Of a DNA stretch of 64,000 nucleotides, positions 1 to 64,000 are shown piece by piece (the stretch's first letter is position 1; each line of letters starts with the position of its first letter). The stretch lies in NCBI GenBank assembly GCA_040879435.1, contig JBBDKG010000013.1, positions 18,271 through 82,270 of the forward strand, read 5' to 3'. Position numbers and translations under genes: made by a program. Under the pieces are notes generated by a model. The model was not told the origin of the DNA. It saw only the letters and a program-made list of their open reading frames with translations, and ran no database searches. This DNA comes from Minisyncoccota bacterium (GTDB lineage: Bacteria > Patescibacteriota > Minisyncoccia > Phycocordibacterales > UBA918).

Positions 1-226
1 TACGTTCTGGAGACCTGCTTTGCCTTTCAAGTGTCGCACTATTGCCTCCTCTGCAGTTTCCGAAACGTCGATCAGACCACCGATGAACGCTTCTGCGTTG
101 GTGTAATGCGGTGGGCGGTGTACGGCATCGATCAATACCTGCAACGTCCCGTCATGAATACCGAAAAGGACTGCGTCAACGGCCACAGCGGCGAATCGTA
201 AGCGCTCAGGAGCTTTGTTTACCATG
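1..226 (-). CDS. NUDIX-like hydrolase, partial (C-terminus runs off the window edge)
   Basis: The minus-strand ORF starts at ATG 224-226 and its N-terminus reads MVNKAPERLRFAAVAVDAVLFGIHDGTLQVL..GGLIDVSETAEEAIVRHLKGKAG, which resembles a NUDIX fold and box; the ORF is truncated by the window. Confidence 0.4.
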
Positions 227-282
227 ATAGTGTATATCATACATTATCATATAAATAACTCAAGGCTGAGAAGCGGAACGAC

Positions 283-819
283 TCAAACACGTGCAACCAG
301 TGCTGCGATGGCACTCTTGATACGTTCCTGTGTGCGCTCATCGGTAAGCGTGCCGTCCTCCGCGAACTTCTCACCTGCCGTTCCAAGATGGAACTCAGGC
401 TGGCCGAGCACCGTGGCATTCAGGTGAAGGAGACTCTGTTTGAGGTCATATTGCGCGACGGCTGCTCCGATCGAGCCGGATGATGCTCCGACGACAAGTA
501 CCGTTTTACCACTGAACGAATTCTCTCCATCCGGACGAGACGCCCAGTCAACGGCGTTCTTGAGCACTCCCGGCACACCGCGGTTATACTCCGGGGTCGC
601 GATGACGATCGCGTCAGCAACTTCGATCGCCTGTTTGAACGCCTGCACGGATTCGGGAACAGCTTCGGATTCAATATCCTCGTTATACAACGGAAGACCC
701 GCGATGGGTGCCTCCGTTATAGTGGTACCCTCCGGAACGGACGACATGAACGCGTTCATCAGCTTCCGGTTATACGACTCCTTTCGAAGGCTCCCAACGA
801 CCCCTACAATATGTGCCAT
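283..819 (-). CDS. NAD(P)H-dependent FMN reductase family oxidoreductase
   Basis: The 178 aa product begins MAHIVGVVGSLRKESYNRKL and contains IATPEYNRGVPGVLKNAVDW, typical of the FMN_red/YieF/ChrR family. Confidence 0.7.
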   Translation of the reverse strand: MAHIVGVVGSLRKESYNRKLMNAFMSSVPEGTTITEAPIAGLPLYNEDIESEAVPESVQAFKQAIEVADAIVIATPEYNRGVPGVLKNAVDWASRPDGENSFSGKTVLVVGASSGSIGAAVAQYDLKQSLLHLNATVLGQPEFHLGTAGEKFAEDGTLTDERTQERIKSAIAALVARV

Positions 820-915
820 AAAAACTCTGCGTTACCGAACAATATACCCTCAGACTACCACGACACCCCGGAACATAAGAAAAAAGCGCCGTGTGGCGCT
901 GTTTTCCCTTAGATG

Positions 916-1569
916 CTAGAGGAAGTATATCTGTGTGAGAAGTTTCTTGAATGCAGCACGGATCTCGCTCTCCTCGTCCTCATACTGACCGATGATCACG
1001 TAGTGCTTTCCACGATATTCGAGTACATAGGTCTCGCTTGTGAACGGGCCATTTGCGGTAAAGCGGATCGCTGCGACATTATCGACGCGGGCGTCTTCCG
1101 GCTCACCGATGCGGAGGCCGTATGCTGTGTATCCGCTGCGGGCTTCCGCCCATTCGCGCAGCGTGGGCTTTGGTGCTTCTTCGGTGGTCGTGCCGGTCGC
1201 CGGTTCGGTTGTTGTTGCCGCTTCCGGTTCGTCAAACACAAGAATGGTGATGGCCGGCATCTGACTACCGACCGCCGCCACGCCTTCTGCTGCGTCGTAG
1301 CGTACGCTATCGACGAGCGTGTATGCCTTCACCAGAGCAGGGTCGCCAAGCGCTGCGCCCTCCGGTGACTCAAGGAGCGTATACCCCTCCATGCCGGCGT
1401 AGTATGTGAACTCAAGATTCTGCGCCTCGCCGGTCACCTGTTGCGGCACCCCGGGGATCTCATATCGCTGTGGATCGTCGGTCCGATCCCACGCGTACCA
1501 GACCACTCCTGCTGCTACGATGAGGAGCACGATGATGCTTATAACAATTCGGTTCGTATTCTGTGTCAT
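916..1569 (-). CDS. hypothetical membrane-anchored protein (N-terminal TM, extracytoplasmic domain, Thr/Glu-rich linker)
   Basis: ATG start at 1567-1569; there is one N-terminal TM helix (IVISIIVLLIVAAGVVWYAW); I recognise no known domain. Confidence 0.45.
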   Translation of the reverse strand: MTQNTNRIVISIIVLLIVAAGVVWYAWDRTDDPQRYEIPGVPQQVTGEAQNLEFTYYAGMEGYTLLESPEGAALGDPALVKAYTLVDSVRYDAAEGVAAVGSQMPAITILVFDEPEAATTTEPATGTTTEEAPKPTLREWAEARSGYTAYGLRIGEPEDARVDNVAAIRFTANGPFTSETYVLEYRGKHYVIIGQYEDEESEIRAAFKKLLTQIYFL

Positions 1570-1722
1570 ATGTTACTTTCAGACTATATAAATGGTCGTT
1601 CCTGACGCTGCAACAACTATAGTGTGCACGCGATGAAGAGCTCATGAACGGATGGAACTCTGCAGGGCACTGTGCAGAGTTCCATTGTACGGCATATTGT
1701 GGGGAATGCCGAACATGTATGG

Positions 1723-2799
1723 TCATTCTCCGATATTGAGCCCACTATTGGTCGTTGCGTCAAGGTCGATGTGCGTTGCAGGCGGATTCGCAAGGTCAAC
1801 ATCAATGATCAAACCGGTCTCCTGGTCGATCGTGATGGTTCCAAGAAGGCTGAGTGCCGCTTCAACCTCACCCGCCAGCTCCTCTGCAGCCACGATACTC
1901 GCCTCTGCAGCTGCTTCTGCATTGCGAGCAAGTTCAGCGCGTGCATCGGTAATGTGCTCAGCTGCAGTGTCGAGTGTTGTTCGCATATCGTTTCTCGTCT
2001 CTGCTTCAAGTTCAGCTTCAGCGTTGATCACTCCGCGAAGTGAGGCGACACGGGCTATAACAGCCTCAAATCGTGCATCGAGATCGATCTCGCCGGCGAG
2101 CTGTGTGCTCATGAGCGCCATCGAGGACTCTTCGGCCGCATCGTTCGATGCTGACGCAAGCCGCGTGGTGACGTCTGCAGCGAGTGTATTGCCGTTTGAC
2201 GCAAACGCTGCCAGGTCGGCTGCAACCGACGCAAGGACAGTCGTTTCGATCTCAGCTGCCACATCAGCGTCAGCGCGCAAGGATGCCTCCTGCGCGACTT
2301 CCGCCTGCGCAAGGATACGTGCATGAGCCTCTGTTGCCGCTTCACCTTCAAATTCGCCGCGGGACGCAAGTTCATTCGCTTCCTCGACCCGTTCTGCCAA
2401 TAGTCCAGCCTGGAGGCGTGCTTCGGCATTGGCGCCGATCGCTGCCGCACTCCGTACATTCTCATTCACATGGATCTTCACCGGATAGAGCATGTCCCCC
2501 GGTACCGCACCCGCAGCAAGCGCAGCTGTTCCGCCGCCTGCAACCATAAGTGCGATCAGTAATGATGCGTGTATATACATAGTCTTTGTTCGGATACGTA
2601 GAAGTAATGTCGACCATACAGGCTGTTGCTGTATGTGCTCCGTAGAACGCACTACCTCCCCCTCTCTTACACCTTCAGTCACTTTATGAAAATCCGCATA
2701 CGAAGAAAGCGACTCGCGCATGCGTAGCTTGGCCTCACGCGGAAGTTCTATCTCCGCAACCTGCTTCAGATATTCGGTTGTATCGCGTTTATTCGTCAT
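1723..2799 (-). CDS. anti-sigma-factor-like membrane protein (DUF5667-like), co-operonic with the ECF sigma factor
   Basis: Its start overlaps the sigma-factor stop as ATGA (2796-2799); the product has a single TM followed by PGDMLYPVK and a long Ala/Glu-rich coiled region, which is the typical partner architecture of an ECF sigma. Confidence 0.55.
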   Translation of the reverse strand: MTNKRDTTEYLKQVAEIELPREAKLRMRESLSSYADFHKVTEGVREGEVVRSTEHIQQQPVWSTLLLRIRTKTMYIHASLLIALMVAGGGTAALAAGAVPGDMLYPVKIHVNENVRSAAAIGANAEARLQAGLLAERVEEANELASRGEFEGEAATEAHARILAQAEVAQEASLRADADVAAEIETTVLASVAADLAAFASNGNTLAADVTTRLASASNDAAEESSMALMSTQLAGEIDLDARFEAVIARVASLRGVINAEAELEAETRNDMRTTLDTAAEHITDARAELARNAEAAAEASIVAAEELAGEVEAALSLLGTITIDQETGLIIDVDLANPPATHIDLDATTNSGLNIGE

Positions 2800-3826: not shown

Positions 3827-3943
3827 CGGCAAAACACCATTGTTTAAGGCACATTATATGATATAGTGCACACATACGAGCGGAATAAGGGACGCCCCGC
3901 AATCACGCCTCCTTTCGAACCGTTACCCGTTAAGCCCATACAT

Positions 3944-4618
3944 TTGAGAAAACCACATTCATCATTCAACGCAAAGTCACGAACGCGCATCAACAACGCA
4001 ATCCGCGCGCGTGAGCTTCGTGTGGTCGGCGCCAACGGCGAGAATCTTGGCGTACTGCTCCTCAACGACGCTCTGAAAGCAGCCGAAGAGGCTGGATGCG
4101 ACCTCATTGAGATCTCCCCGAACGCCAAACCACCGGTAGCCAAGATCATGGACTTCGGTCAGTACCGCTATCAGGAGAAGCGGAAAGCAAGCGAGGTGAA
4201 GGCAAAGTCGCACGTGACGGAAACAAAGAGCGTGCAAGTGAAGATCGGTACTGGCGAACATGACCAAATGCTCAAGGCCCGCCGTGCTGCCGAATGGCTT
4301 TCCGAAGGTCACCGCGTGAAAGTGGACCTCTTTCTCTGGGGCCGGTACAAGTATATGGAGCCAGCCTTCTTGAAGGAGCGACTGGAGCGCTTCCTGAAGC
4401 TTATCCCGATCGAATACAAGCTGGCGGATGAGATCAAGAAGAGCCCGAAGGGATACACAACGACGCTCGAGCGGGAGGGCAAGGCAAAATTCCAGCCAGC
4501 CAAAGAGAGTGCGAAACCTGCCCAAATCCTTGAAAAGGAGCCGAGAGAGTCGGAACAACCACCGGCAAAGTCGAAAAAGAAGTCCCTCGATGAGCTCATT
4601 GAAGGCGGTCTGCTATAG
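3944..4618 (+). CDS. infC: translation initiation factor IF-3 (non-ATG start; exact start uncertain, 3866-3950)
   Basis: The ORF contains INNAIRARELRVVGANGENLGVL..LIEISPNAKPPVAKIMDFGQYRYQ and a C-terminal domain (HVTETKSVQVKIGTGEHD), and carries a Lys-rich C-terminal tail; infC classically uses an unusual start codon and there is a TTG at 3944. Confidence 0.8.
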   Translation: MRKPHSSFNAKSRTRINNAIRARELRVVGANGENLGVLLLNDALKAAEEAGCDLIEISPNAKPPVAKIMDFGQYRYQEKRKASEVKAKSHVTETKSVQVKIGTGEHDQMLKARRAAEWLSEGHRVKVDLFLWGRYKYMEPAFLKERLERFLKLIPIEYKLADEIKKSPKGYTTTLEREGKAKFQPAKESAKPAQILEKEPRESEQPPAKSKKKSLDELIEGGLL

Positions 4619-10966: not shown

Positions 10967-12238
10967 CTAGTACTCACGCATAGAGACCTGTGCGTCGAGC
11001 CGACGAATGAGGTCGAGGACCACCGAGACCACGATGAGAAGCGCCGTACCACCGATCGCAAGCGCCGTCACACCGGTCGCCATCTGCATCAGAAGCGGCA
11101 GGACCGCAACGAGACCGAGGAAGGTCGCGCCGACGAGTGTGAGGCGGGTGATGAGGTTACCAAGGTACTCTGACGTGTTCCCACCCGGACGGATGCCCGG
11201 CACGAACGCACCATTCCGTTGCAGATTCCGCGACACATTCTCCGGATCGAAGGTCACCGCTGTATAGAAGAAGGTGAAGAGGAATACCAAGAGGAAGTAC
11301 ACCGCTGCATAGAGGAACTGATTATTAAAGAAGGTCAGCAACACATCTGACGCTCGCTGAATACCCTCGATGTTGAAGGTTGAAAGAATGTTGAGAAGCA
11401 TCTGCGGGAAGAGGAGTACTGAGAGCGCGAAGATGATCGGGATCACACCGGTCTGGTTGAGGCGAAGCGGCAGGTACGAGGACGTACCGCCGTACGTCTG
11501 TCCGCCCCGGCTCTGCTTTGCGTACGTGATCGGAACCGGACGTTCAGCCTCGGTCATGACAACAACGGCATAGATCACCGCAAGCGCTGCGATCGCAAAT
11601 CCGACGTAGAGTGGAAGCTGCGTCGTTGAGAAGCCGAACATAAGCTGACTCGCTGTTGTAGGTAGGGTTGCCACGATACCGGCAAAGATGATGATCGAGA
11701 CACCGTTCCCGATACCGAACTCGGTCACGAGCTCACCGATCCACATGAGAAGCATTGAACCGCCAACGACCAAGACCACGTTCGTGACGAACTCAAAGGT
11801 AGAGAGGCCGGAGATCACCCCCTGACTCTCAAGGAGTGTGAGGAATCCGAATCCCTGGAGGACAGCGAGCGGCAGCGTGAGCATGCGCGAATACTGTGTA
11901 AACTTTGCACGTCCCGCTTCCCCTTCCTCGGTATGAAGACTCTTCATCTTTGGGGACATCACGGTCATCAACTGCATCACGATGGAGGCAGTAATGAACG
12001 GACCTACACCGAGCATCACGATCGAGAGATTGGCGAGTCCTCCACCTGAGAAGATGTTCAGAAGCCCGAGGAACTGGTTATTCGAGAAGAACTGCGCGAG
12101 TACCGCCTGATCGATTCCCGGAATAGGGATCGCTGCAAGTGCACGGAACACACAAAGCGCCGCGAGTACGAAGAGTACGCGGTTGCGGATCGTTCTGTCC
12201 GTTACAATGACCTTCAGTTTATGGATGAATGTATTCAT
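10967..12238 (-). CDS. secY: preprotein translocase subunit SecY
   Basis: The 423 aa product has 10 TM helices and begins MNTFIHKLKVIVTDRTIRNRVLFVLAALCVFR. Confidence 0.95.
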   Translation of the reverse strand: MNTFIHKLKVIVTDRTIRNRVLFVLAALCVFRALAAIPIPGIDQAVLAQFFSNNQFLGLLNIFSGGGLANLSIVMLGVGPFITASIVMQLMTVMSPKMKSLHTEEGEAGRAKFTQYSRMLTLPLAVLQGFGFLTLLESQGVISGLSTFEFVTNVVLVVGGSMLLMWIGELVTEFGIGNGVSIIIFAGIVATLPTTASQLMFGFSTTQLPLYVGFAIAALAVIYAVVVMTEAERPVPITYAKQSRGGQTYGGTSSYLPLRLNQTGVIPIIFALSVLLFPQMLLNILSTFNIEGIQRASDVLLTFFNNQFLYAAVYFLLVFLFTFFYTAVTFDPENVSRNLQRNGAFVPGIRPGGNTSEYLGNLITRLTLVGATFLGLVAVLPLLMQMATGVTALAIGGTALLIVVSVVLDLIRRLDAQVSMREY

Positions 12239-12254
12239 ACGCTCATTCTAGCGG

Positions 12255-14869: not shown

Positions 14870-15054
14870 TTATAGGTCTTAGTGCTTGGCAGTATCACCG
14901 AGATGCGGTGACTTACCCCTATTAACGTCGCATATATCGCCCCACCCGCCTTCCGATCGAGAACTTTCGATTCGGCGCGTCAGATTTCCTTCAAATTGAG
15001 GAGTGTCTGCGATATATCGCTACGCGGAGTAGAATACAGCAAAATTATAAAAAA

Positions 15055-15090
15055 ACAAGGTCCGGCGAATCGATCGCCAGACCTTTTGAA
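15055..15090 (-). terminator. intrinsic terminator downstream of hypothetical gene 15107-15502
   Basis: aaggtccggcgaatcgatcgccagacctttt; the minus strand carries a T-tract. Confidence 0.6.
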
Positions 15091-15106
15091 ACGCGCCCCC
15101 CACCGC

Positions 15107-15502
15107 TTACGCTTTGCGCTGTCTCGTTCCGCCGAGCAATTCGTCGGTGAGCGCCTTCCACCCCGCTTCAGCTGCGCCGGGGACACGGTCGCCGATGTCG
15201 CGTGCTGCAGCAAAGAGTTCGTCGGTGAACTGCTTGAAGCCGGCGGAAGCATTCTTGCCCGTATGCTGGGCCTTCTCGCCAATGCCGAATGACGCAAGTG
15301 CGATCACTGCGGCAAGTTCGATTCTGACGGTTGCGGTGATGACTCCACCCGTATTGGGCTGTGCTTCGAGCACCAACCAGTCACGGACGAGCCCGTCGCC
15401 GTCCGGCTTGTGCTCGAACCGTGCGTTCGTGATAGAGAACGGAACGTCCCCCACCTGCGAACGAAAAGCCTCAAAAGCACCATTCTTGGGTTGTGTAGCC
15501 AA
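15107..15502 (-). CDS. hypothetical protein (131 aa, mixed beta/alpha, no recognisable domain)
   Basis: Clean ORF with its own terminators on both sides; the product begins MATQPKNGAFEAFRSQVGDVPF. Confidence 0.4.
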   Translation of the reverse strand: MATQPKNGAFEAFRSQVGDVPFSITNARFEHKPDGDGLVRDWLVLEAQPNTGGVITATVRIELAAVIALASFGIGEKAQHTGKNASAGFKQFTDELFAAARDIGDRVPGAAEAGWKALTDELLGGTRQRKA

Positions 15503-15551
15503 TGATCTATCCTTTCCTTCAAGAGTGTGCAGCGTACACTACGCTAGAGCA

Positions 15552-15588
15552 GAAAAAAATCAACCCCGGCAGTGACCCGCCGGGGTTG
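15552..15588 (-). terminator. intrinsic terminator downstream of the TAXI SBP gene
   Basis: The minus strand reads aaccccggcgggtcactgccggggttgattttttt. Confidence 0.8.
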
Positions 15589-15607
15589 TTCGCTAGAAGA
15601 GCAGAGC

Positions 15608-16633
15608 TCAGTCGGATGCGGGGTTGACCGCGCTCGTCGACTTGACCGACTTCGGCGTGAACACGTTCTCCCACTTCATTTCGCGGGAGGGATTGATGCG
15701 ACGCCACGCCGGATGCATTCCGGGCTCTTCCTGAAACCGGAGGATGTTCTCCCGGACGCAGGACTGGAGCTCGGAGAGTGCATTCACGAATTCGGGAGTC
15801 TTGTACTCCCACACGAAGAGGAGCGCGTCGACCGTCAGGGTCTCCGTGCCCTGGCCCGTGCTGCCGAGATTGTCGTAGCTGACCGTGGAGAGCCCGTAGA
15901 CGGACTCAACGTCCTCGGTGAGCTGCTTCCCGACCTCAAGGAGCTTGAACTCGCCTTTCGGCAGCTCTTCGATCCAGGAGGCCGGGTAGCCGACAGTGGC
16001 GATGATCGCATCGGCCTGGCCGTCGCGAATCATCTGGATCGCCTCGCCCTCGTTGCCGGCCGAGATGACGTTGAGGTTGAGACGGCCGAGCTGACCCACG
16101 ATCTTCGCCGTGGTGAGCGAGCCGCCCCAGGCGACCACCGTACGACCTTCAAGGCCGGCCACGTCGCGCAGCGGATTCTGCTGAACTTCGTAGACGGCTT
16201 CCTTGCTGCCGATCCCGGTGCCGAAGAAGCCTTCTTCGGCTTCCACGGTCATGACCGACACCATAGCGGGGACGATCACGTGGATCGCCTCCTCATGGAG
16301 CGGGAGCAGTGCCTGCACCCGCGGCATGTCGGGATTGACCTGGAGTTCGAGATACGCCTTGTCGAGCTGAGCCAGACCGCCGGGGATCTCGTTGCGGAGA
16401 ATACCCCGGATGTTGTTGTCTGATCCGCCGATCGACTTGCCGTCCTCGCCCAGGCGATGCTGAACGACGAGGGTGTCGCTGTTGCACACATCGGCGATCT
16501 GCTGGACAACGGGGTAGTACGTACCACCCTCGCCGCCGGAGCCGATCGTAAGCGTTGTCGGTGCCGCCGCGGCGAATGCCGTGCTGCCGCCGGCCACAAC
16601 TGCTGCGAGCATGAGCTGGTTCAAGTATTTCAT
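15608..16633 (-). CDS. TAXI-family TRAP-transporter solute-binding protein (orphan; no DctQM permease nearby)
   Basis: A signal peptide (MKYLNQLMLAAVVAGGSTAFAAAAP) is followed by TLTIGSGGEGGTYYP, which is characteristic of TAXI; an AGAAGGAG Shine-Dalgarno sequence precedes the ATG at 16631-16633. Confidence 0.75.
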   Translation of the reverse strand: MKYLNQLMLAAVVAGGSTAFAAAAPTTLTIGSGGEGGTYYPVVQQIADVCNSDTLVVQHRLGEDGKSIGGSDNNIRGILRNEIPGGLAQLDKAYLELQVNPDMPRVQALLPLHEEAIHVIVPAMVSVMTVEAEEGFFGTGIGSKEAVYEVQQNPLRDVAGLEGRTVVAWGGSLTTAKIVGQLGRLNLNVISAGNEGEAIQMIRDGQADAIIATVGYPASWIEELPKGEFKLLEVGKQLTEDVESVYGLSTVSYDNLGSTGQGTETLTVDALLFVWEYKTPEFVNALSELQSCVRENILRFQEEPGMHPAWRRINPSREMKWENVFTPKSVKSTSAVNPASD

Positions 16634-16667
16634 CGTGGTTCTCCTTCTTACGATGACTTCCGGTCCG

Positions 16668-16877
16668 TTACCGGAGCTTGAGTTTATTGATGGCATCCTC
16701 TTCACGCGAATCGGATACCGCCGGTCGTGCCGGGGCCGGCCGTGCGGCAGGCCCTGGCGGTTTCTTTTCTGCACGGACGGATGTTGTCGAACTCGACGAG
16801 AATCCGTCCGTGTATACATAACCGCCGCCAATGATGAGAATCATGACGATTACGGCTATGATGATGCGCCCTATCAT
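16668..16877 (-). CDS. small single-TM protein with a Pro/Ala-rich tail
   Basis: MIGRIIIAVIVMILIIGGGYVYT...; it lies between the 2-TM protein and the TAXI gene on the same strand. Confidence 0.35.
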   Translation of the reverse strand: MIGRIIIAVIVMILIIGGGYVYTDGFSSSSTTSVRAEKKPPGPAARPAPARPAVSDSREEDAINKLKLR

Positions 16878-16889
16878 GGTGCCTCCTTC

Positions 16890-17672
16890 CTAGGCCAGGA
16901 CTCTTTGCTTGTTGTCGAAGAAGTGAGGGGTCTGGAACGGCTCGTTGTCGTCCGTACCCGGATCCTTCTCATACGTGAGTCTGAGCACCTCCTGGGTGTC
17001 AGCATCCTTCTCGAGCAACATCTCGAGCTCGGCGAATGAGTCCGCGACGCTCTGTCGGACTGCGCCGATCGCCTCGCCCTTGAGGATCTCGTCGAGCGCA
17101 GCGTCGCCGCTGACGTTCTTGAGTTGACGCATGGCGCCGGAAGCTCGCTGAGCCCACTTGTGGTCCGCCTTCATGAAGCGGACTTTGCTGTGGTACTCCT
17201 GGAGCTGCTCCTCAGCGTCGCCAGCCTTGGTGCGAAGCACTGACACAGCGTTCTTCATCCGGTCCATCATTTCCTGACGGTCTGAAACGTCCTCATTCGG
17301 GAATTCCCTCTTGAGATCGTTCAGCTCATCCTGAGAGACCTTGTGTGCAGCCATCATTTGCTGCACATAGCTGACGAACTTATCGAGCGAGTTGCGCTTT
17401 TGCTGATAATCAAGCTCGAGCGTCTCGATCGGATTCATGCGAGCGTTCGCTTTCGCCAACTTGAGTGCCAGTGTCTTCATGATCCGAATGATCGAACCTG
17501 AGAAGAGGATGGCACCGGCGACGATCGCAGCGTAAACGCCGATCACCACCAGATTCGCCATCGCGAACGCTGCCATGCCGAGTACTGGACCCAGAATGGC
17601 GAGTACGAGAATGCAAACGAAGCCAAATACAGCCTTCTGCATTCCCGTCATTTCGGAGAATTTCGGCAACAT
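16890..17672 (-). CDS. 2-TM hairpin membrane protein with a cytoplasmic coiled-coil domain (possibly TelA/XpaC-like)
   Basis: ATG at 17670-17672 with an AGGAAGG Shine-Dalgarno sequence; two adjacent TM helices are followed by about 180 aa of helical, charged sequence. Confidence 0.45.
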   Translation of the reverse strand: MLPKFSEMTGMQKAVFGFVCILVLAILGPVLGMAAFAMANLVVIGVYAAIVAGAILFSGSIIRIMKTLALKLAKANARMNPIETLELDYQQKRNSLDKFVSYVQQMMAAHKVSQDELNDLKREFPNEDVSDRQEMMDRMKNAVSVLRTKAGDAEEQLQEYHSKVRFMKADHKWAQRASGAMRQLKNVSGDAALDEILKGEAIGAVRQSVADSFAELEMLLEKDADTQEVLRLTYEKDPGTDDNEPFQTPHFFDNKQRVLA

Positions 17673-17753
17673 CGAGGGATCCTTCCTTTGCTCGTTAATT
17701 GTCGAGATACTGCACAAAAATACCTGTGGACTTCACCACAGATTCCGGACGAG

Positions 17754-17782
17754 AGAGTATCACACATAGTATTGAATGTCAA
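17754..17782 (-). promoter_or_regulatory. consensus sigma70-type promoter (TTGACA-N17-extended -10 TGTGATACT) driving the TAXI island operon
   Basis: Read on the minus strand, the sequence is TTGACAttcaatactatgtgtgaTACTCT. Confidence 0.5.
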
Positions 17783-17818
17783 TATTTTCTGGAAAGGTTC
17801 CCCTCGGGGCAGTTCTAA

Positions 17819-17849
17819 GAAAAGACCGCACTTTCGTGCGGTCTTTTCT
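17819..17849. terminator. bidirectional intrinsic terminator downstream of rplE
   Basis: The sequence is gaaaagaccgcactttcgtgcggtcttttc. Confidence 0.8.
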
Positions 17850-17863
17850 ATATGTTGTTTGTC

Positions 17864-18412
17864 TTACGCAGCTACCTCCTCCTTCATGAGCGGCAGACCG
17901 ATATTTCGCAGGAATGCCTCTGCTTCCTCTTTGGACTTCGCGGTCGTCACGATAGTGATCGCGAACGAGAAGACGTCGCGGATATCCTCGTCAACGGTCT
18001 CCGGGAAGATAGTGTGCTCCTTGATACCGATGGTGATGTTCCCCATCTCATCAATGGCAGTCGGCTTGAGACCACGGAAGTCACGGGTCTGTGGGAGGGC
18101 GATATGCACCAGCTTGTCGAAAAAGTCGCGCATACGGGCGCCACGAAGGGTCACCTGGTATCCAACGACATCACCTTCACGAAGCTTGAACGATGCAATC
18201 GACTGACGCGCAGGTCGCGGTGCCGGCTTCTGGCCGGTGATGAGTGCGAGGCGATCCTGAATGAGGGCGATCTTTGCCTTGTCATCTACCTTGCCGGTAC
18301 CGACCGAGACCACGATCTTCTCCATTTTCGGCGCCTGCATCCGGTTGGTGTATGCAAAGGTGTCCTTCAAGGCATCGTAGACATGTTCGAGTTTTGCTTT
18401 GATTGGTTCCAT
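17864..18412 (-). CDS. rplE: 50S ribosomal protein L5
   Basis: MEPIKAKLEHVYDALKDTFAYTNRMQAPKMEKIVVSVGTG; the ORF track starts at an upstream TTG, and ATG 18410-18412 is preferred. Confidence 0.9.
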   Translation of the reverse strand: MEPIKAKLEHVYDALKDTFAYTNRMQAPKMEKIVVSVGTGKVDDKAKIALIQDRLALITGQKPAPRPARQSIASFKLREGDVVGYQVTLRGARMRDFFDKLVHIALPQTRDFRGLKPTAIDEMGNITIGIKEHTIFPETVDEDIRDVFSFAITIVTTAKSKEEAEAFLRNIGLPLMKEEVAA

Positions 18413-18437
18413 ACGCAAGTAGTTCTGGTGCTAATAA

Positions 18438-18737
18438 TTAAATGGTCTTTCCTGACGCACGTGAAATGCGTGACTTCGTATCTCCTTCCGTCTTGTATCC
18501 CACACGGACCGGCTTCTTCCCTTCAGTGAGGGCAACGTTTGAGATATGGATCGGAACGCTCTTCTCGATGATCTGTCCCTGTGAGCGGGTGCGGCGATTC
18601 TTCTGGTGACGGGTCACGACATTCACCCCTTCGATGAGCACTTGCTCCGTCTTCGGGAAGGCAGCGAGAACCGCACCGGACTTGCCTTTATCCTTGCCGG
18701 CGATCACCATCACATTGTCTCCTTTCTTGATCTTCAT
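18438..18737 (-). CDS. rplX: 50S ribosomal protein L24
   Basis: The product reads MKIKKGDNVMVIAGKDKGKSGAVLAAFPK (KOW motif). Confidence 0.9.
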   Translation of the reverse strand: MKIKKGDNVMVIAGKDKGKSGAVLAAFPKTEQVLIEGVNVVTRHQKNRRTRSQGQIIEKSVPIHISNVALTEGKKPVRVGYKTEGDTKSRISRASGKTI

Positions 18738-18741
18738 ATGC

Positions 18742-19113
18742 CTATACTACTTCAGGTGCCAATGACACGATCTTCTGATAACCGGCCTCTGAAAGCTCGC
18801 GCGGAATCGGACCGAACACACGGTTTGCACGCGGCTCCTTCTTTTCCTTGTCTACAAGCACGACCGCATTGTCGTCAAAACTGATGTACGAACCATCCAC
18901 GCGGCGGAACGGCTTGCGCTGTCGGACAACGACCCCGTACACGATATCCTTCTTCTTCGCCTGCTTTCGCGGTTCGGCGGTCTGTACCGAGAGCACGACC
19001 ATCTCGCCGAGCTCTGCGTACCGCTTCTTTGAGCCGCCGAGCACCTTGAACACCCGGCCGATCTTCGCGCCTGAGTTGTCCGTGATCTTTACGATTGATT
19101 GTGGTTGAATCAT
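18742..19113 (-). CDS. rplN: 50S ribosomal protein L14
   Basis: The product reads MIQPQSIVKITDNSGAKIGRVFKVLGGSKKRYA. Confidence 0.95.
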   Translation of the reverse strand: MIQPQSIVKITDNSGAKIGRVFKVLGGSKKRYAELGEMVVLSVQTAEPRKQAKKKDIVYGVVVRQRKPFRRVDGSYISFDDNAVVLVDKEKKEPRANRVFGPIPRELSEAGYQKIVSLAPEVV

Positions 19114-19120
19114 AAGCCGT

Positions 19121-19402
19121 TTATGAACCGCGAACGAGGGTGAATCGCTTCCGCTTGCTGATAGGCGTCGTCTCCTTTATCTCGACCTTCTCTCCGACCG
19201 CTGCCGTATTGCCAGCGTCATGCACGAGGTACTTCTTCGTCCGACGCAAGTATTTCTTGTATTTCGGATGTTTTGTATACCGCTCCACCGCGACCGTGCA
19301 CGTATCCTGCATCTTAGACGCGACCACCGTCCCGCGTAGCACACGGCCTCCCGCGGTGTTGCGGTCTGTCGTGGTATTCGTTGTTGTATGTTCAGTTGCC
19401 AT
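19121..19402 (-). CDS. rpsQ: 30S ribosomal protein S17
   Basis: The product contains RVLRGTVVASKMQDTCTVAVERYTKHPKYKK. Confidence 0.9.
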   Translation of the reverse strand: MATEHTTTNTTTDRNTAGGRVLRGTVVASKMQDTCTVAVERYTKHPKYKKYLRRTKKYLVHDAGNTAAVGEKVEIKETTPISKRKRFTLVRGS

Positions 19403-19413
19403 AAATATAAATG

Positions 19414-19638
19414 CTAGCGGGTTGCTTTCACGCGGCGGGTAACTTCGGTAAGTGCCTGTGCGACATGCTTTTTCGCGGTCCGTATCTTCCGTACATCCCG
19501 CAGTCCGGTCGTGAAGCGCTGCTCGCGCACAGTCTCACGCTCGGTCCGGATGAACTCCGCAAGGTCCGTATCGCTCATTTTTGAAATGTCATTCATGCTC
19601 GTCATAATCAGGTATGTATTATGCGCCCGTATCTTCAC
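19414..19638 (-). CDS. rpmC: 50S ribosomal protein L29 (true start probably internal, near 19596-19605)
   Basis: The product contains MSDTDLAEFIRTERETVREQRFTTGLRDVRKIRTAKKHVAQALT. Confidence 0.8.
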   Translation of the reverse strand: MKIRAHNTYLIMTSMNDISKMSDTDLAEFIRTERETVREQRFTTGLRDVRKIRTAKKHVAQALTEVTRRVKATR

Positions 19639-20053: not shown

Positions 20054-20066
20054 AGGCTATTGTGAA

Positions 20067-20777: not shown

Positions 20778-20796
20778 GATAAATATGAAATTAGTA

Positions 20797-21117: not shown

Positions 21118-21126
21118 AGATGATTA

Positions 21127-21657: not shown

Positions 21658-21683
21658 CGCCCGGGACCAACTGGTTCCCGGGC
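21658..21683 (-). terminator. probable terminator hairpin downstream of the NUDIX gene 21694-22209
   Basis: gcccgggaccaactggttcccgggc has an 8-bp GC stem, and the T-tract on the minus strand is weak. Confidence 0.45.
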
Positions 21684-21693
21684 TGCCGATAGC

Positions 21694-42606: not shown

Positions 42607-42664
42607 AGGTGTACTCTAGCATTAAAAAATGCGGCCCGCCAAAATGACGGGCCGCGGTGAGGCC

Positions 42665-44577: not shown

Positions 44578-44603
44578 AGAAAGCCATGATATCATGACCG
44601 CGT

Positions 44604-45011
44604 ATGACCTCCCTTTTTTCAAAGATCGTCAAGCGTGAGATCCCCGCACACATCGTGTATGAGGACGACGTGTGTATTGTTATTCTTGATAAGTTCCCCT
44701 CTATCAAAGGTCAGTCGCTCGTCATTCCGAAGGCCGAGGTCGACTACGCGTTCGATCTTCCGGACGATATCTACCACCACCTGTTCGATATCGCCAAAAT
44801 GGTAGCCCACGCACTCGACACCACGTTCGACACCGAACGCACTTGTCTTATTGTCGAAGGATTCGAAGTGCCACACGTGCATATCAAGCTCTACCCGGTG
44901 CCGAAGGGTACAGCAGCCCTTGGTCCCCTTCTCACACAAGGCAGCGAAGCACCCGACGAAGAGCTTGCTGCCACAGCCGCAGAACTCAGGACTGCTATTA
45001 CTCGCGTGTAG
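44604..45011 (+). CDS. HIT-family (histidine triad) protein
   Basis: The product begins MTSLFSKIVKREIPAHIVYEDD and contains VPHVHIKLYP (a histidine-triad variant). Confidence 0.8.
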   Translation: MTSLFSKIVKREIPAHIVYEDDVCIVILDKFPSIKGQSLVIPKAEVDYAFDLPDDIYHHLFDIAKMVAHALDTTFDTERTCLIVEGFEVPHVHIKLYPVPKGTAALGPLLTQGSEAPDEELAATAAELRTAITRV

Positions 45012-53863: not shown

Positions 53864-53996
53864 GCTGTTTCTTTTATTATACCAGCAGCAGTACACGTTG
53901 CGTTGCGATAAGGTGTTGAAGACACGCACCATCCTCTCTTGCATAGATATCAGTACGGGTGTGGAATAGAGGTCGGCATGCACACGGGAGGTGAGG

Positions 53997-54155
53997 ATGC
54001 GCCAAAATGAGTTCTATCGATACGAGGGCGGTGAATTTCTTGAGGAGCAGGCACGAACGAAGCAGTTCCGCTGGAAGTGGGTGGTGATAGCGGGAGGCGT
54101 GGCATTGCTTGCGATCGTCGGTTCCAGTTTTGACTTCTTTCGTACTCCGGTGTAG
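53997..54155 (+). CDS. candidate small single-TM protein upstream of nusA
   Basis: gggaggtgaggATG; the product is MRQNEFYRYEGGEFLEEQARTKQFRWKWVVIAGGVALLAIVGSSFDFFRTPV. Confidence 0.3.
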   Translation: MRQNEFYRYEGGEFLEEQARTKQFRWKWVVIAGGVALLAIVGSSFDFFRTPV

Positions 54156-54248
54156 AGTACGCACATGACAGTAACGCTCGGCCTCTCGGCCGGGCGTTCC
54201 TTGTTACAAACGCTCAACTTTTATTACCATTCGATAAGTTTTAGTAAC

Positions 54249-55646
54249 ATGTTTGACCTAAAAGTGATCAACGCCGTCCTCGCAGAAATGGAGGAGGAAC
54301 GCGGTATTCCCCGCGAACGTATGCTCGACGCCATCGAGCAGGCGCTTGCGACCGCATACAAGAAGGAGTTCGGCAAACGCGGCCAGATCGTACGCACGGA
54401 ATTTGATATTGCCACCGGCACCACCACCTTCAACCAGATCAAGATCGTCGTCGACGAGAGTATGATACGTGATGAGGATGAGGAAGACGAGGAGGATGAG
54501 CCAACGGACGATGAGACCATCGAACTGGACAAGAAGGTCCGCTTTGATCCGGAAAAGCACATCATGATCGAGAGCGCACGTCTCATCAAAAAGGACGTGC
54601 AGGTGGGTGATGAGCTTGTATTCCCGCTTGAACCAAAGGATGACTTTGGCCGTATCGCAGCACAGACCGCAAAACAGGTCATCATCCAGAAGATCCGTGA
54701 AGCGGAAAAGGATTCTGCGCTCGCAGAGTTCGGCCAGAAAGAGGGCGACATTGTGGTCGGCCACGCACAGCGGTTTGAACGTGGCAACCTCTACGTGGAC
54801 CTTGGCCGTGTGACCGGTATCATGCCGTACGACGAGCAGATTCCTGGCGAGCGCTTCCGACCTGGTGAACGTATCCGCGCACTACTCCTCACCGTCGACG
54901 AGACCGCCCGAGGCATCTATCTCAAACTGACACGCTCGCACCCGAATTTCCTCGCCACACTCTTCGCGATCGAAGCGCCTGAACTTGCGAATGGTTCTAT
55001 TGAGATCAAAGCGATTGCACGTGAAGCCGGTTCCCGCTCGAAGATCGCTGTCGCATCACTTGATGAGCACCTTGACCCGGTCGGATCACTGGTCGGCCAG
55101 CGCGGTGTTCGTGTGGCGACGGTCATGAGTGAGCTCGGAGGTGAAAAGATCGACGTCATCGAGTGGTCACCTGATCCTATGGAATTCATTGAAGAGGCCC
55201 TCTCGCCTGCGCACGTACTGTCCGTACGAATCGAGACAGAGCCCAATGATGAGGCCGGTGACCGAGGACATGCGATCGTTGAGGTCGCACCCGACCAGCA
55301 GTCGCTTGCGATCGGACGCGGCGGACAGAATGTACGCCTTGCTGCAAAACTGACTGGCTGGAAGATCGATATTGTCTCTGCACAGACCGGCGAGCAGGTC
55401 GCGGAAGCTGAGGGTGACTCTGTGGAGATCGCGGACAAGGTCGAAGCGGAGCCAGTGGTAGAGAGCGTGCCTACTGAAACTGACGAAACAGCGGACCGTG
55501 ACGAGACAGAAACAACGAAACAAGAAGAAGATACTACCGATACTCCAGAGGCAGCCGAGGAGAAAGTTGAAGAAGGAAAAGAGATGGCTGAAGCGGAAGA
55601 TGAGAAATCTGCTGGTGATGACAACGACACTGAAAAGAGTGCATAA
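54249..55646 (+). CDS. nusA: transcription termination/antitermination factor NusA with an acidic C-terminal tail
   Basis: MFDLKVINAVLAEMEEERGIPRE...; S1 and KH domains (GQRGVRVATV, IGRGGQNVRLAAKLTGWKIDI). Confidence 0.9.
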   Translation: MFDLKVINAVLAEMEEERGIPRERMLDAIEQALATAYKKEFGKRGQIVRTEFDIATGTTTFNQIKIVVDESMIRDEDEEDEEDEPTDDETIELDKKVRFDPEKHIMIESARLIKKDVQVGDELVFPLEPKDDFGRIAAQTAKQVIIQKIREAEKDSALAEFGQKEGDIVVGHAQRFERGNLYVDLGRVTGIMPYDEQIPGERFRPGERIRALLLTVDETARGIYLKLTRSHPNFLATLFAIEAPELANGSIEIKAIAREAGSRSKIAVASLDEHLDPVGSLVGQRGVRVATVMSELGGEKIDVIEWSPDPMEFIEEALSPAHVLSVRIETEPNDEAGDRGHAIVEVAPDQQSLAIGRGGQNVRLAAKLTGWKIDIVSAQTGEQVAEAEGDSVEIADKVEAEPVVESVPTETDETADRDETETTKQEEDTTDTPEAAEEKVEEGKEMAEAEDEKSAGDDNDTEKSA

Positions 55647-58811: not shown

Positions 58812-59927
58812 TCAGAACATCGGACCTGACGAATCAATCGCTTGATTGATTTGCGCGCGCAACGTACCGCGGTGATCATCATCTTCTCCCTGCGAAGGAG
58901 TGAGGAGAGTCGTTTCCTCCGTGAGGATCCGCTCGATCGCTGCTGCTTCAAGCAGAAATGGACCGTACTGGGCCACGATTGCGATAGCGTCCCCTTGATT
59001 CACATGCACGATGGGATCAAAAAGGTCCGAAAAACGCACCATTTCGCGGCGCAGCACCGGCTGAGCAATTTCTCGGAGCTGTACATCGATTTTTGGCACG
59101 AACTCGACCGCATCCGGTTCCGCTGTGACAAAAAAGTCAACGCCGTTCTTGTCAAGAAGCACGATCTTCTCAGCCACCTGTTGCGGCGGGGTCGGGAGAT
59201 TGATCGTAAGTTTCGCGACAGCATCTGCTGGCGTCCGATTACCAGGGAAGAGATCGCGAAGAAGATCAAGGTGCGACTTCCCGCGGAGGTACGCTCGCAC
59301 AACACGACGCGGATTATAGCTCGACGGGAGCCCTTTGAACAAGAATATGACCGCGGCAAAAGCCAACGTCGTCCCGAGCATTACTTGCACCCACCCTGAC
59401 ATTGGTCCAAAAAATGAGTCGATCGATACAGGGGCTACAAAAACGACACCGAGCGCCAGGCAAACATAGACGATGTTCAAGGTAAAAAGACGCTCTGTAA
59501 TGGGAATGAAGTCAGGCATCGCCGCATTCACAGACCCATTCTCGTTGAATCCGAACTCGAATAGGTCATACTGCTTCCGAATGGCATCCCACGCACCGCG
59601 TGGAATGAGCGCAAGCGGTTCAACACCAATCTTCGTGAGCTTGTCACGAAGCGCCCTCGCATCCCGTTCATACTGGTCGATATCAGCCCGGAGCTTCGCG
59701 ATCTGGTACAGGTGTTCGTTCGAGATACGCTGCCTTGTCTTCTGCTCCTCGCGCGCAGCGTGATCGATGTCCCGTATCTCGAGACCGTTGATAATCCGCG
59801 TTTGCGGGATCTCCTCGTCGATTGTCGGGTTCGCTGCTCGCTCTTTCAGGGTCGCTATGCGTACGGCAACCCGCTCCTCAACGGTACGTTCAATCTCTTT
59901 GAACGTCTCTGCATGTGGATGAATCAT
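58812..59927 (-). CDS. hypothetical membrane protein (N-terminal coiled coil, 2 TM, C-terminal domain)
   Basis: 371 aa; TM helices at LNIVYVCLALGVVFVAPV and VQVMLGTTLAFAAVIFLF. Confidence 0.45.
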   Translation of the reverse strand: MIHPHAETFKEIERTVEERVAVRIATLKERAANPTIDEEIPQTRIINGLEIRDIDHAAREEQKTRQRISNEHLYQIAKLRADIDQYERDARALRDKLTKIGVEPLALIPRGAWDAIRKQYDLFEFGFNENGSVNAAMPDFIPITERLFTLNIVYVCLALGVVFVAPVSIDSFFGPMSGWVQVMLGTTLAFAAVIFLFKGLPSSYNPRRVVRAYLRGKSHLDLLRDLFPGNRTPADAVAKLTINLPTPPQQVAEKIVLLDKNGVDFFVTAEPDAVEFVPKIDVQLREIAQPVLRREMVRFSDLFDPIVHVNQGDAIAIVAQYGPFLLEAAAIERILTEETTLLTPSQGEDDDHRGTLRAQINQAIDSSGPMF

Positions 59928-60064
59928 TGTTTCACTCCTCCTTGGCTTCTTTCATTGACGGAGAACTCTGCGGGTAGCATATACACACATCGAAAGAAGT
60001 CAATGACCTGGCATCTCTATACATACCATGATAGGTTTGCAACAGATGGAGAAGGAACGGAATA

Positions 60065-62736: not shown

Positions 62737-63294
62737 CAGCTTCTTAGCCGCGATGAAGGTCGTGTAGTTATACTTCAGGTCCTGAATGGAGGTCTCGAGA
62801 ACTTCAAGTCCGTAGAGGTCGGCACACCGCCGCGGTGCAATGACCGCAGTGGTACTTGGGAGTTCCCCATCGTGGAGCGCCTTTGCGGCTGCTGCAGTGT
62901 CCTTGAATTCGGCGATCTCAGCATCCGGCCACGCACGTTTGAGGTACATACGGCACTGTTTAATGGCCTGGTCGTGTGAGGTGATGCAGGTAATATGGGA
63001 GGCTGTAACACCCGGTAATACCAGGAGATTGTGGTGTACGTCGAGTTCGAACATCCGTTCGATGACGAACTGATGTTTTGCCATCGCATGCACCGCATCG
63101 ATCACGATACCGCCATTGCTGTTCTCGATCGGGAAGATCCCACGATCGATCTCCCCTGTTTCAAGGCTTGTAAGCACCGTTTCTGCGGAAATAAGGGGCA
63201 CTATCTCCCCCGCTGCGATCTTCTCAAGTTGCAGATACATCTCTCCTGCCTGTTCAGAAAAGCTCCCGCGTGCACCCATAACACCGATCTTCAT
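62731..63294 (-). CDS. pheA: prephenate dehydratase catalytic (PDT) domain protein lacking an ACT domain
   Basis: The product begins MKIGVMGARGSFSEQAG and contains TCITSHDQAIKQC and FIAAKK; the start is ATG 63294 or 63312. Confidence 0.7.
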   Translation of the reverse strand: MKIGVMGARGSFSEQAGEMYLQLEKIAAGEIVPLISAETVLTSLETGEIDRGIFPIENSNGGIVIDAVHAMAKHQFVIERMFELDVHHNLLVLPGVTASHITCITSHDQAIKQCRMYLKRAWPDAEIAEFKDTAAAAKALHDGELPSTTAVIAPRRCADLYGLEVLETSIQDLKYNYTTFIAAKKLQ

Positions 63295-63483
63295 AGGGTG
63301 TGATGATACCATACTGACTTTTCTGCGACCTTCCATAAAAAATTACGACACAAAAACATCGTCCCACAAGTCATTGCAGCAGGAAAACCTTGCTATATAA
63401 TGTTTTCAAGCCAATTTAAGCGGCAGTGTCGCATTCGCGTCACGAATCATTACACGCCAGTTATAAAATTCTTCAGAACATTT

Positions 63484-63756
63484 ATGAACAAGGCAGACAT
63501 CATCAACAAAGTGCATGAAGAGCTCGACGTTACCAAGGCGGATGCAGAGCGCGCGGTAGAAACGGTGATCAGCAGCATCGTGAACGCGCTTAAGGACGGC
63601 ACTGAGGTCTCAATCGCAGGTCTTGGTATCTTCTCAGCCAAGATGCGAAACGCACGCAGCGCGCGCAACCCTCGCACCGGCGAGACCATTCAGGTCCCTG
63701 CAATGCGCGTACCAAAGTTCCGCGCAGCGAAGGCGCTCAAGGATGCGGTGAAGTAA
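63484..63756 (+). CDS. hup: HU-family DNA-binding protein
   Basis: The product begins MNKADIINKVHEELDVTKADAERAVETVISSI and contains GFGIFSAKMRNARSARNPRTGETIQVPA. Confidence 0.9.
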   Translation: MNKADIINKVHEELDVTKADAERAVETVISSIVNALKDGTEVSIAGLGIFSAKMRNARSARNPRTGETIQVPAMRVPKFRAAKALKDAVK

Positions 63757-63774
63757 CCACCTCTCTAAAGATAC

Positions 63775-63810
63775 AAAACCCCGTAGGCAAGACCTACGGG
63801 GTTTTGTATA
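63775..63810 (+). terminator. intrinsic terminator after hup
   Basis: The sequence is aaaaccccgtaggcaagacctacggggttttgtata. Confidence 0.85.
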
Positions 63811-63890
63811 CACGTACGGATAGAACACCAAGAATACTCGCAAACAGTGCTAAACTGAGCTCAGTACCGGTTCACTAGGGAGATGACCTC

Positions 63891-64000
63891 GATGATCAGT
63901 GGAATCAGAAAGTGGTGGATGCGTTCCGTCTGGAATGATGTGCGGCGGATGTATCGTACCTTCCCGTTCACTACGAAAGACTCCCACGAGAAACAGTGGC
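63891..64000 (+). CDS. partial ORF (N-terminus only), Trp/Arg-rich
   Basis: gggagatgacctcgATG; MISGIRKWWMRSVWNDVRRMYRTF...; the ORF runs off the window end. Confidence 0.2.

Follow-up and report, generated by a model that had tools for sequence, protein, structure and literature searches.

The 64,000-nucleotide (nt) window analysed here, one continuous stretch of contig JBBDKG010000013.1 from a Minisyncoccota bacterium, appears to combine two ways of marking where translation starts. A Shine-Dalgarno (SD) sequence is missing from 71 of its 81 curated genes, whereas nine accessory genes are led by one; the tenth gene that scores is rplD. The best explanation we can offer, and one that we consider probable, is that SD-free initiation is native to this organism and that the SD-led genes are recent imports.

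The starts of the curated set were fixed by homology. The genes were taken from a codon-score caller followed by manual start curation, and greedy longest-frame calls, which gave antisense open reading frames (ORFs) within the ribosomal-protein region, were dropped. Every start was then scored by the energy (in kcal/mol) of the duplex between positions -22 to -3 and 5'-ACCUCCUUU-3', an anti-SD that was assumed to be canonical for the purpose of scoring only and that may not be the host's own. On this scale tuf (+1.3), fusA (+2.3), secY (-1.9), rplE (+0.2), nusA (+0.1), ppa (+0.6), tig (+0.4), rny (+2.8) and pgk (-0.8) all fall between -1.9 and +2.8, and the claim of an earlier, sequence-only reading of this DNA that these genes lack an SD is thereby confirmed. 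Its extension of the claim to most ribosomal-protein genes also stands, with two exceptions: the 25 genes span -7.1 to +2.9, 23 of them lie above -5, and this value is reached by rplD and rpsG only. The latter carries AAAGGA (-5.6), while the apparent SD of rplD (-7.1) was rejected as a chance match, being a GAGGT located 13 nt upstream, inside rplC, and occurring at 1% of the rplD starts of relatives. Moreover, anti-SD pairing is weaker at real starts than at internal ATGs (mean -2.35 versus -3.34, p = 9e-5), which indicates that SD-like sequence is depleted ahead of genes, beyond mere absence. The energies in the window are bimodal, and the nine accessory genes make up a separate mode of -7.4 to -12.3. 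Thus the contrast between core and cargo genes that the earlier reading had proposed for systematic scoring holds at the 81 genes of the window, with energies that refer to the assumed canonical anti-SD.

The genes without an SD carry start signals of their own. At 28 of 79 starts a -10-like TAnnnT has its last base 5-10 nt ahead of the ATG, the distances peaking at 6 and 8 nt; among control ATGs the share is 2.4% (odds ratio 22, p = 1e-19). Of these 28 boxes 13, where about 1.7 would be expected, have the extended form TGnTAnnnT. All 28 genes start with ATG and have duplex energies above -7. A -10 box separated by six bases from the first letter of the ATG has the geometry of a leaderless transcript, and boxes placed 5-10 nt before the ATG imply leaderless mRNAs, with transcription starts predicted from the position of the box. 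This layout is seen at secY, where a box at this distance is present in 59% of 22 relatives, at rnhA and at a DUF1801-like gene (Table 1), and also at the first NUDIX gene (TGgTATAGT, 6 nt), comEC and tpiA. In the back-to-back pair recJ and HIT, TGATATCAT lies 8 nt before each gene's own ATG, and the two look like overlapping divergent leaderless promoters.

The second native signal is a T directly before the start codon, T(-1), which is found at 33 of the 43 genes without any other signal and at 20 of the 28 leaderless-type genes, together 53 of 71 (75%) of the genes without an SD. The regions upstream of the starts are A-rich and G-poor. They do not show the Kozak-like context of the Bacteroidota type, with A at -3, -6 and -11 to -13: A(-3) has a frequency of 0.35, and T(-1) dominates with 0.77 in the window and 0.80 in relatives. 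Not one of the ten SD-scoring genes has T(-1), as opposed to 53 of the 71 others (p = 7e-6).

Relatives share this native code. A scan of species-representative genomes for L2 yielded 80 loci (L001-L080) from Paceibacteria, Kaiserbacteria and 'Nomurabacteria' with L2 proteins 63-80% identical to that of the window. At homology-anchored starts in these loci the ribosomal-protein genes, tuf, fusA and secY have SDs at 0-4%, and T(-1) occurs at 80% of 791 starts, rising to 96-100% for rplF, rplX, rplN, rpmC, rplP, tuf and fusA. Across the native SD-less block from rpsS to rplE the relatives show T(-1) at 82-100% and SDs at 0-4%. When genes were called de novo (1189 genes), T(-1) was found at 76% of the genes without an SD versus 24% of the 29 genes with an SD motif, and TAnnnT peaked 6-9 nt before the ATG. 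SD-free starts were likewise found for nusA, tig, clpP, rny and hup in metagenome relatives identified through tig.

The nine SD-led genes differ from this pattern. They carry AGGAG or GGAGG cores, and in nine of nine a spacer of 4-7 nt separates the purine tract from the ATG. For the cargo genes that the sequence-only reading had singled out, namely those of the TAXI solute-binding protein, the BTLCP protease, the 'ClpP-like' protein, the NUDIX protein and the CYTH protein, this spacing and energies of -7.4 to -12.0 bear out the SDs it had described: BTLCP has AAGGAGG within 30151-30165 (-11.9), the 'ClpP-like' gene GAGGAGG (-12.0) and the island NUDIX gene GAGGAG (-9.0). It had also included several tiny ORFs, and those at 22339 and 53997 are both preceded by an SD; the former is a candidate ORF of 66 amino acids (aa; 22339-22539) in the island between rplB and rpsS, for which a Pfam/NCBIfam-type scan gave no family match. 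Pfam supports the assignments of TAXI (NMT1_3), NUDIX (E = 1e-14 for the island gene), BTLCP (E = 2e-61), CYTH and DUF465. The label 'ClpP-like' had to be given up, as it has no Pfam or NCBIfam support and the match to ClpP-related proteases reaches 15 bits against a cut-off of 120.

Most of these genes lie in islands, and the islands lie where relatives are open too. The islands of the window are located at the junctions fusA/tuf, rpsJ/rplC (S10/L3), rplB/rpsS (L2/S19) and rplE/rpsN (L5/S14), plus tig/clpP. In the 80 relatives only the same four junctions of the array are open, with 0.4-3.8 kb of variable DNA each and gaps of more than 300 nt in 28 of 35 (fusA/tuf), 49 of 53 (rpsJ/rplC), 48 of 49 (rplB/rpsS) and 24 of 30 (rplE/rpsN) loci, whereas at the other 18 junctions the median gap lies between -10 and 81 nt (between -10 and 21 at 17 of them) and large gaps are almost absent. 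The islands in the array of the window occupy exactly these four slots (14870-17863, 21451-24081, 26687-28228 and 29826-30836). Within the region 12255-33002, SDs stand on six of nine island genes versus one of 22 conserved genes (p = 7e-4).

The age of a slot gene appears to matter as well. Slot ORFs belonging to families common to at least three genomes have an SD in 0 of 124 cases and T(-1) in 65%, whereas among genome-specific (singleton) slot ORFs with a length of 100 aa or more 26 of 143 show a strict SD and 37% T(-1); between singletons and families of two or more the odds ratio for an SD is 5.3 (p = 1e-4). This tally suggests that SDs mark the young, variable fraction of the slots and that older slot genes follow the native code. 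Two families recur in the slots of relatives, one of proteins about 233 aa long (35 loci) and one of antisense proteins of 105 aa (30 rplB/rpsS slots); neither is present in the window.

The association of SDs with cargo, as claimed in the sequence-only reading, therefore holds as a statistical one, but cargo genes are not uniformly SD-led, since the cargo starts 24027, 33114 and 34303 have the native leaderless layout. At 24027, a gene of the rplB/rpsS island, TGcTATACT ends 7 nt before the ATG, and the membrane-protein gene at 23552 in the same island starts 1 nt past the upstream stop.

A foreign origin of the SD-led genes, which the sequence-only reading had also suggested, is well supported. 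The cargo genes have no homologues in the 80 syntenic loci (0 of 80 for the island NUDIX gene) except for a 44%-identical BTLCP in two loci. The SD-led ones lack the native T(-1), and in the codon comparison that had been proposed they fit the host less well (p = 0.02), although their GC and GC3 do not differ overall. In ten relatives the tig/clpP gap measures 148-1339 nt, and the gene starting at 59927 is found in 0 of 10. The best non-self matches of BTLCP are 71-77% identical and include proteins of Rhizobiaceae, Mesorhizobium and Aminobacter (Rhizobiales). The gene at 27588-28094 has only 12 homologues, the best of them 48-50% identical, and the one inspected sits among TrkH, TrkA, ArsC and MgtE in a context outside the Candidate Phyla Radiation (CPR). 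When plasmids were searched with DUF465, CYTH and NUDIX, there were either no matches at all or only distant ones at 34-45% identity. A phage origin was found to be unsupported, as scans of viral contigs for the TAXI protein and the 59927 protein returned no relatives, and a sub-threshold 'small terminase' match of the coiled-coil protein in the TAXI cassette was treated as noise. In the closest relative (L001, HK-STAS-PATE-26) a BTLCP gene with an AAGGAGG SD lies antisense in the same fusA/tuf slot, and its product is 44% identical to that of the window, which suggests repeated import or replacement of the BTLCP function at this junction.

The TAXI cassette is one of these units. The family of TAXI-like proteins is tiny (14 proteins), and the binding protein of the cassette has no TRAP permease nearby. 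The cassette comprises a coiled-coil membrane protein, a membrane protein of about 69 aa, TAXI and a fourth gene of about 120-130 aa, which is not the same in all copies and, in L084, is either missing or truncated. Apart from the window copy (15107-17689) we found it in L084 (4853-6920), L083 (9023-11419) and L085 (123-2271); in two Patescibacteria genomes, those of the window and of L084, it lies directly after rplE, and in L083 and L085 it lies elsewhere. Nearly all cassette genes have SDs at the four places; for TAXI in L084 the only SD precedes an ATG that lies downstream of the GTG annotated as its start. In the two SD-poor hosts the GC content at third codon positions (GC3) of the cassette is 0.64-0.83, as compared to 0.39 and 0.66 for the hosts themselves; the window copy has 0.74-0.83 versus 0.66, with the TAXI gene as a clear outlier (0.825 versus about 0.63).

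This cassette also speaks in favour of a different view, according to which a working anti-SD has been kept and the SD-led genes form a separate expression class, for instance of accessory surface or stress functions, with SDs that are under selection. Three to four of the cassette genes bear SDs in four genomes, two of which are SD-poor Paceibacteria hosts; in addition, the SDs in the window are near-perfect and spaced 4-7 nt from the start, and several units have promoter-like sites and terminators of their own. We nevertheless consider this view unlikely. In both SD-poor hosts the composition of the cassette marks it as foreign, so that its SDs may have persisted there only briefly, and we have for this reason dropped their conservation as proof of function in this host. 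The slot genes, SD-free when common to at least three genomes and SD-bearing when genome-specific, fit loss or non-retention of SDs better than selection for them, and the anti-SD motif itself is absent in about half of the Parcubacteria (PMC9297842). Finally, there is no SD-specific avoidance inside coding regions: relative to synonymous-codon shuffles GGAGG has a ratio of 0.82 and AGGAG of 0.98, and control pentamers are equally depleted (GAGGG 0.77, CCTCC 0.66, GAGGA 0.87), a result which says nothing on the anti-SD.

Could the SD-like tracts simply be random purine runs, made into a contrast by the choice of starts? Strong anti-SD matches do occur at 6-8% of random or internal ATGs and the real starts are only modestly higher. 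However, no SD-led ORF has an ATG ahead of the one taken as its start, the SD genes are concentrated in islands and devoid of T(-1), the pattern recurs in relatives, and most of the products agree with the NCBI annotation. There (locus tags WDZ93_) nine of ten looked-up products are identical to ours, i.e. EF-Tu, L2 and seven cargo proteins, so that seven of the nine SD-led products are exact matches; the 69-aa cassette gene is absent from the look-up set, and BTLCP, the exception, is annotated as a shorter product of 175 aa, the curated 200-aa product being recorded in the Logan assembly only. We therefore regard an artefact of chance and annotation as very improbable. That the cargo was misjoined into a Paceibacteria contig from co-occurring Proteobacteria, a chimera of assembly or binning to which the Rhizobiales-like BTLCP and the GC3 of 0.83 of TAXI might point, is scarcely credible, since the islands measure only 0.6-2.6 kb and have Paceibacteria ribosomal-protein or elongation-factor genes on both flanks, the junctions of L5-cassette-S8 and of BTLCP-fusA are reproduced in independent Logan contigs (L082 and L081, respectively; run SRR27977663), and relatives have their variable DNA at exactly the same four junctions.

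Several observations nonetheless weigh against a native SD-free mode with imported SDs. The excess of strong SDs is modest, with 7.6% of window starts versus 3.1% of control ATGs at energies of -9 or below (p = 0.035) and 11.4% versus 7.8% at -7 or below (p = 0.16), and in relatives SD motifs show no excess at all (2.4% of starts versus 3.3% of control ATGs). With a count of strong SDs this near to chance, the case rests on the identity of the genes that carry them. Several start codons in the window are the choice of the analyst, the singleton ORFs of relatives include some spurious calls, and some -10 boxes, namely the operon-internal ones of rpsE, rplX, rpsQ and rpsC, overlap upstream coding sequence and may be due to chance. 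The 3' end of 16S rRNA was found neither in the window nor in 169 fetched loci, including Logan contigs that extend both ends of the window. For most SD-led genes GC and GC3 do not differ from those of the host, TAXI being the sole clear outlier. Pfam/NCBIfam-type scans of the cargo proteins revealed no integrase or transposase family, although no search was aimed at mobility genes, and no island is bordered by any of the 20 largest families of direct repeats (at least 16 nt), again with no dedicated search for border repeats.

On balance we favour native SD-free initiation with SD-led imports, and we envisage its mechanism as follows. The host, a member of a Paceibacteria (CPR/Patescibacteria) lineage, would start its own genes without SD pairing. 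At about one third of them a -10 or extended -10 box, whose last T precedes the ATG by 5-10 nt and in most cases by 6 or 8, would cause the transcript to begin at or a few bases from the start codon and hence to be leaderless. The remaining genes, mainly packed operon-internal ones, would rely on A-rich, G-poor spacers and a nearly invariant U(-1), where the resulting UAUG could form a fourth base pair with A37 of the initiator tRNA, and initiation may be aided by reinitiation after the upstream stop. We infer that this pairing has a larger role here than in E. coli. An Aragorn search of the loci of relatives for the initiator tRNA found no CAT anticodon. The SD-led genes would be recent horizontal acquisitions that landed in the few permissive junctions of otherwise rigid arrays and brought along the signals of their donors: their leaders would have an AGGAGG-type SD but lack U(-1), and in many cases a promoter and a terminator would have come with them. 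The imported SDs may be functional, which would amount to two regimes in one cell, or may be relics; that no conserved slot gene has an SD favours their non-maintenance.

A bolder version of this scheme holds that the clade has abandoned SD/anti-SD pairing altogether, which would accord with the anti-SD loss described for about half of Parcubacteria, that starts are chosen by transcript 5' ends and by UAUG pairing over four bases with the initiator tRNA, that the island SDs are unread relics and that the four junctions are landing pads. We regard it as possible, with clearly less than even confidence. If it were true, relic SDs would serve as a clock and marker of recent gene import, and there would be a translational barrier in that new genes must lose their SD and gain U(-1). 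The landing pads would perhaps be filled by natural transformation, which is suggested by the presence of ComEC and type IV pilus genes.

But how does this relate to systems already described? Bacteria rich in leaderless mRNAs include Mycobacterium, Streptomyces and Deinococcus, and GeneMarkS-2 recognizes a promoter-plus-RBS (ribosome-binding site) class of genomes. The genes described here resemble theirs in that a sizeable fraction has a -10 box at a fixed short distance before the ATG and no SD; they differ in that they belong to Patescibacteria, that nearly half of the boxes are TG-extended and that U(-1) is near-universal at leadered and internal genes as well. For Patescibacteria, full-text literature searches yielded no account of leaderless initiation. 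In Bacteroidota, initiation is reportedly SD-independent, with a Kozak-like A-rich context and an occluded anti-SD, in work ascribed to Baez in 2019 and Jha in 2021. Common to both are SD-less core and ribosomal-protein operons, A-rich and G-poor upstream regions and few SD exceptions. However, the strongest position is U(-1) here (75-80%) and A at -3, -6 or -12 there, and the SD exceptions are foreign accessory genes here but an autoregulated ribosomal gene such as rpsU in Bacteroidota.

Within the same superphylum, Tsurumaki et al. (2022) found the anti-SD motif to be missing from about half of Parcubacteria 16S genes, overlapping with the group that lacks uL1, and predict no SD helices in about half of Parcubacteria (PMC9297842). 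This fits the SD-free core genes of the window and of the 80 relatives, although their study concerns rRNA and ours mRNA signals. In E. coli, initiation has been shown to rise when U(-1) pairs with A37 of the initiator tRNA (Hollerer and Jeschek 2023, PMC10018350; see also Esposito et al. 2003), and the base favoured here is the same U directly 5' of AUG. Whereas the effect is a modest modulation in E. coli and chloroplasts, U(-1) reaches 96-100% for many genes in the 80 species of this clade and is near-invariant, so that it may be suspected of having a primary role there. Finally, like horizontally acquired islands in general, those of the window are absent at the same position in relatives, partly atypical in composition, closest to proteins of distant taxa and equipped with promoters and terminators of their own. 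Unlike usual genomic islands they are small and confined to four fixed junctions inside the ribosomal-protein array, and no integrase, tRNA target or flanking repeats turned up in scans that were not dedicated to them.

SD-poor and leaderless initiation, the loss of the anti-SD in Parcubacteria and horizontal transfer are thus each known separately. New is their combination in one uncultivated lineage, in which a clade-wide SD-free code of core genes (extended -10 and UAUG) goes together with SDs on genome-specific imports only and with four open junctions in the array. Should this apply genome-wide, an SD would be a simple sequence marker of recent imports in these genomes, gene-start prediction for CPR, where gene finders assume an SD, would need to be revised, and how ribosomes without SD recognition choose start codons and express foreign genes would become a testable question.

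Table 1. Coordinates of SD-led units, native start signals, promoters, hairpins and the repeated motif in the window (energies in kcal/mol)
Feature	Position	Strand	Signal and remarks
TAXI cassette, four genes, between rplE and rpsN	15107-17689	-	SD energies -8.0, -12.3, -9.3, -6.7
Coiled-coil membrane protein, TAXI cassette	start 17672	-	SD AAAGGAAGGA, 17680-17689, -8.0
69-aa membrane protein, TAXI cassette	start 16877	-	SD GGAAGGAGG, 16882-16891, -12.3
TAXI/NMT1_3 binding protein	start 16633	-	AAGGAG, SD 16639-16649, -9.3
131-aa ORF, TAXI cassette	start TTG 15502	-	purine tract 15510-15520, -6.7
NUDIX gene, rplB/rpsS island	21694-22224, start 22209	-	SD AGAGGAGA, 22217-22224, 7 nt from ATG
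Small putative unit, rplB/rpsS island	22280-22591	+	TG-extended promoter-like site 22280-22308; SD GGAGGA 22329-22334; hairpin 22570-22591
'ClpP-like' unit, rpsJ/rplC island	27588-28165	-	168-aa gene, start 28094; SD AGAGAGGAGG, 28100-28109
BTLCP (Peptidase_C93) unit, fusA/tuf island	30076-30770	+	antisense to neighbours; gene 30168-30770
CYTH gene, between fusA and rpsG	34402-34884, start 34414	+	AGGAG 34402-34406 (CAGGAG), 7 nt from ATG; -7.4
DUF465 gene, 62 aa, between rnhA and comEC	41908-42107, start 42096	-	GGGAGGA 42101-42107; -10.3
Hypothetical 371-aa membrane protein, antisense between tig and clpP	58812-59943, start 59927	-	SD AAGGAGGAG, 59935-59943; -11.2
secY, leaderless layout	12238-12250	-	TAGAAT 12245-12250, 6 nt, ATG
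rnhA, leaderless layout	42606-42621	-	TGcTAGAGT, 6 nt, ATG
DUF1801-like gene, leaderless layout	33102-33116	+	TGATACAAT, 6 nt, ATG
recJ (start 44577, -) and HIT (start 44604, +), back-to-back	44577-44606		common palindrome CATGATATCATG; starts 27 nt apart
Two island genes with native-style signals, rplB/rpsS	22581-24040	-	hypothetical 24027; membrane protein 23552
Native SD-less block, rpsS to rplE	17864-21450	-	gaps 4-25 nt; upstream A-rich, G-poor; T at -1
Only near-consensus sigma70 promoter	21632-21604	-	TTGACA-17-TATTAT, 11/12; island edge, 154 nt upstream of rpsS
Hairpin between rplE and TAXI cassette	17818-17849		T-runs on both sides; predicted terminator-like
Other hairpins	24045-24079 (after rplB), 15561-15588 (after TAXI), 15057-15085		predicted terminator-like
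20-nt motif GCGTCAGGAACGACCATTTA of the sequence-only reading	1589-1608	-	sole other copy 18439-18458, the last codons and stop of rplX

The window has a GC content of 54% and contains infC-rpmI-rplT, ndk-map-adk, secY, the long ribosomal-protein array, tuf, fusA and rpsG/rpsL as well as ComEC, recJ, pgk/tpiA, a type IV pilus cluster, nusA, ppa, tig, clpP, rny and hup. A gene for L30 is absent between those of S5 and L15, and a missing L30 is a hallmark of the CPR. Rfam and tRNA scans of the window gave zero matches and zero tRNA genes.

Promoters of the sigma70 type are near chance in the window (12 sites versus 10.2±3.1 in a tool scan; 8 versus 4.75±1.75 for matches of at least 10/12). The sequence-only reading had placed near-perfect ones on two cargo units. 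Only one such site exists, where 0.28 of at least 11/12 would be expected, and it faces rpsS, where it probably restarts the operon interrupted by the island; two cargo units, that at 27588 and that of the 66-aa ORF, have 9/12 matches with a TG extension. In the former the site reads TTGACT-17-TAGTAT (28165-28137) and a terminator-like hairpin overlaps the end of the gene; together with those behind rplE, rplB and TAXI it is one of the terminator-like hairpins that came with the islands. BTLCP has a weak promoter-like site at 30076-30104. The leader of rpsS is about 150 nt long (21451-21632) and has no Rfam match, and the rplB/rpsS slot is open in relatives too.

The 20-nt motif that the same reading had considered as part of a native initiation signal could not be upheld as such, as it occurs in two copies only and the second is the 3' end of rplX. 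The copy at 1589-1608 is 19/20 identical to the rplX end, from which it is 16.8 kb distant; it lies upstream of a membrane-protein gene that is unrelated, and may be a remnant of a rearrangement.

A few further observations concern individual starts. TAnnnT ending directly at the ATG (distance 0) forms a second peak, which comprises 10% of the starts in the window and 11% of those in relatives; this peak reflects a TA at -6/-5 plus T(-1) and may stem from upstream stop codons. The start of infC (3866-4618) is uncertain: the longest ORF runs from a GTG at 3866 that directly follows TTATATGATATA, a start that would extend the N-terminus by about 60 aa, and no candidate ATG was found near the conserved N-terminus. 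Upstream of nusA, in the region 53986-54249, the 52-aa membrane ORF 53997-54155 has the SD GGGAGGTGA, and nusA may itself start 28 codons earlier than the homology start used (54249), at an in-frame ATG (54165) that follows TAGAGT by 6 nt in a leaderless arrangement. Finally, beyond the left end of the window a Logan contig (L169, 1458-8390) contains an NAD-salvage cluster (NrtR, an NAD kinase fusion, NMNAT, NAPRTase and NAD synthase) whose genes have purine-rich SD-like tracts, e.g. CAGGAGGA (-10.3), and mostly lack T(-1), and which may be another imported block.

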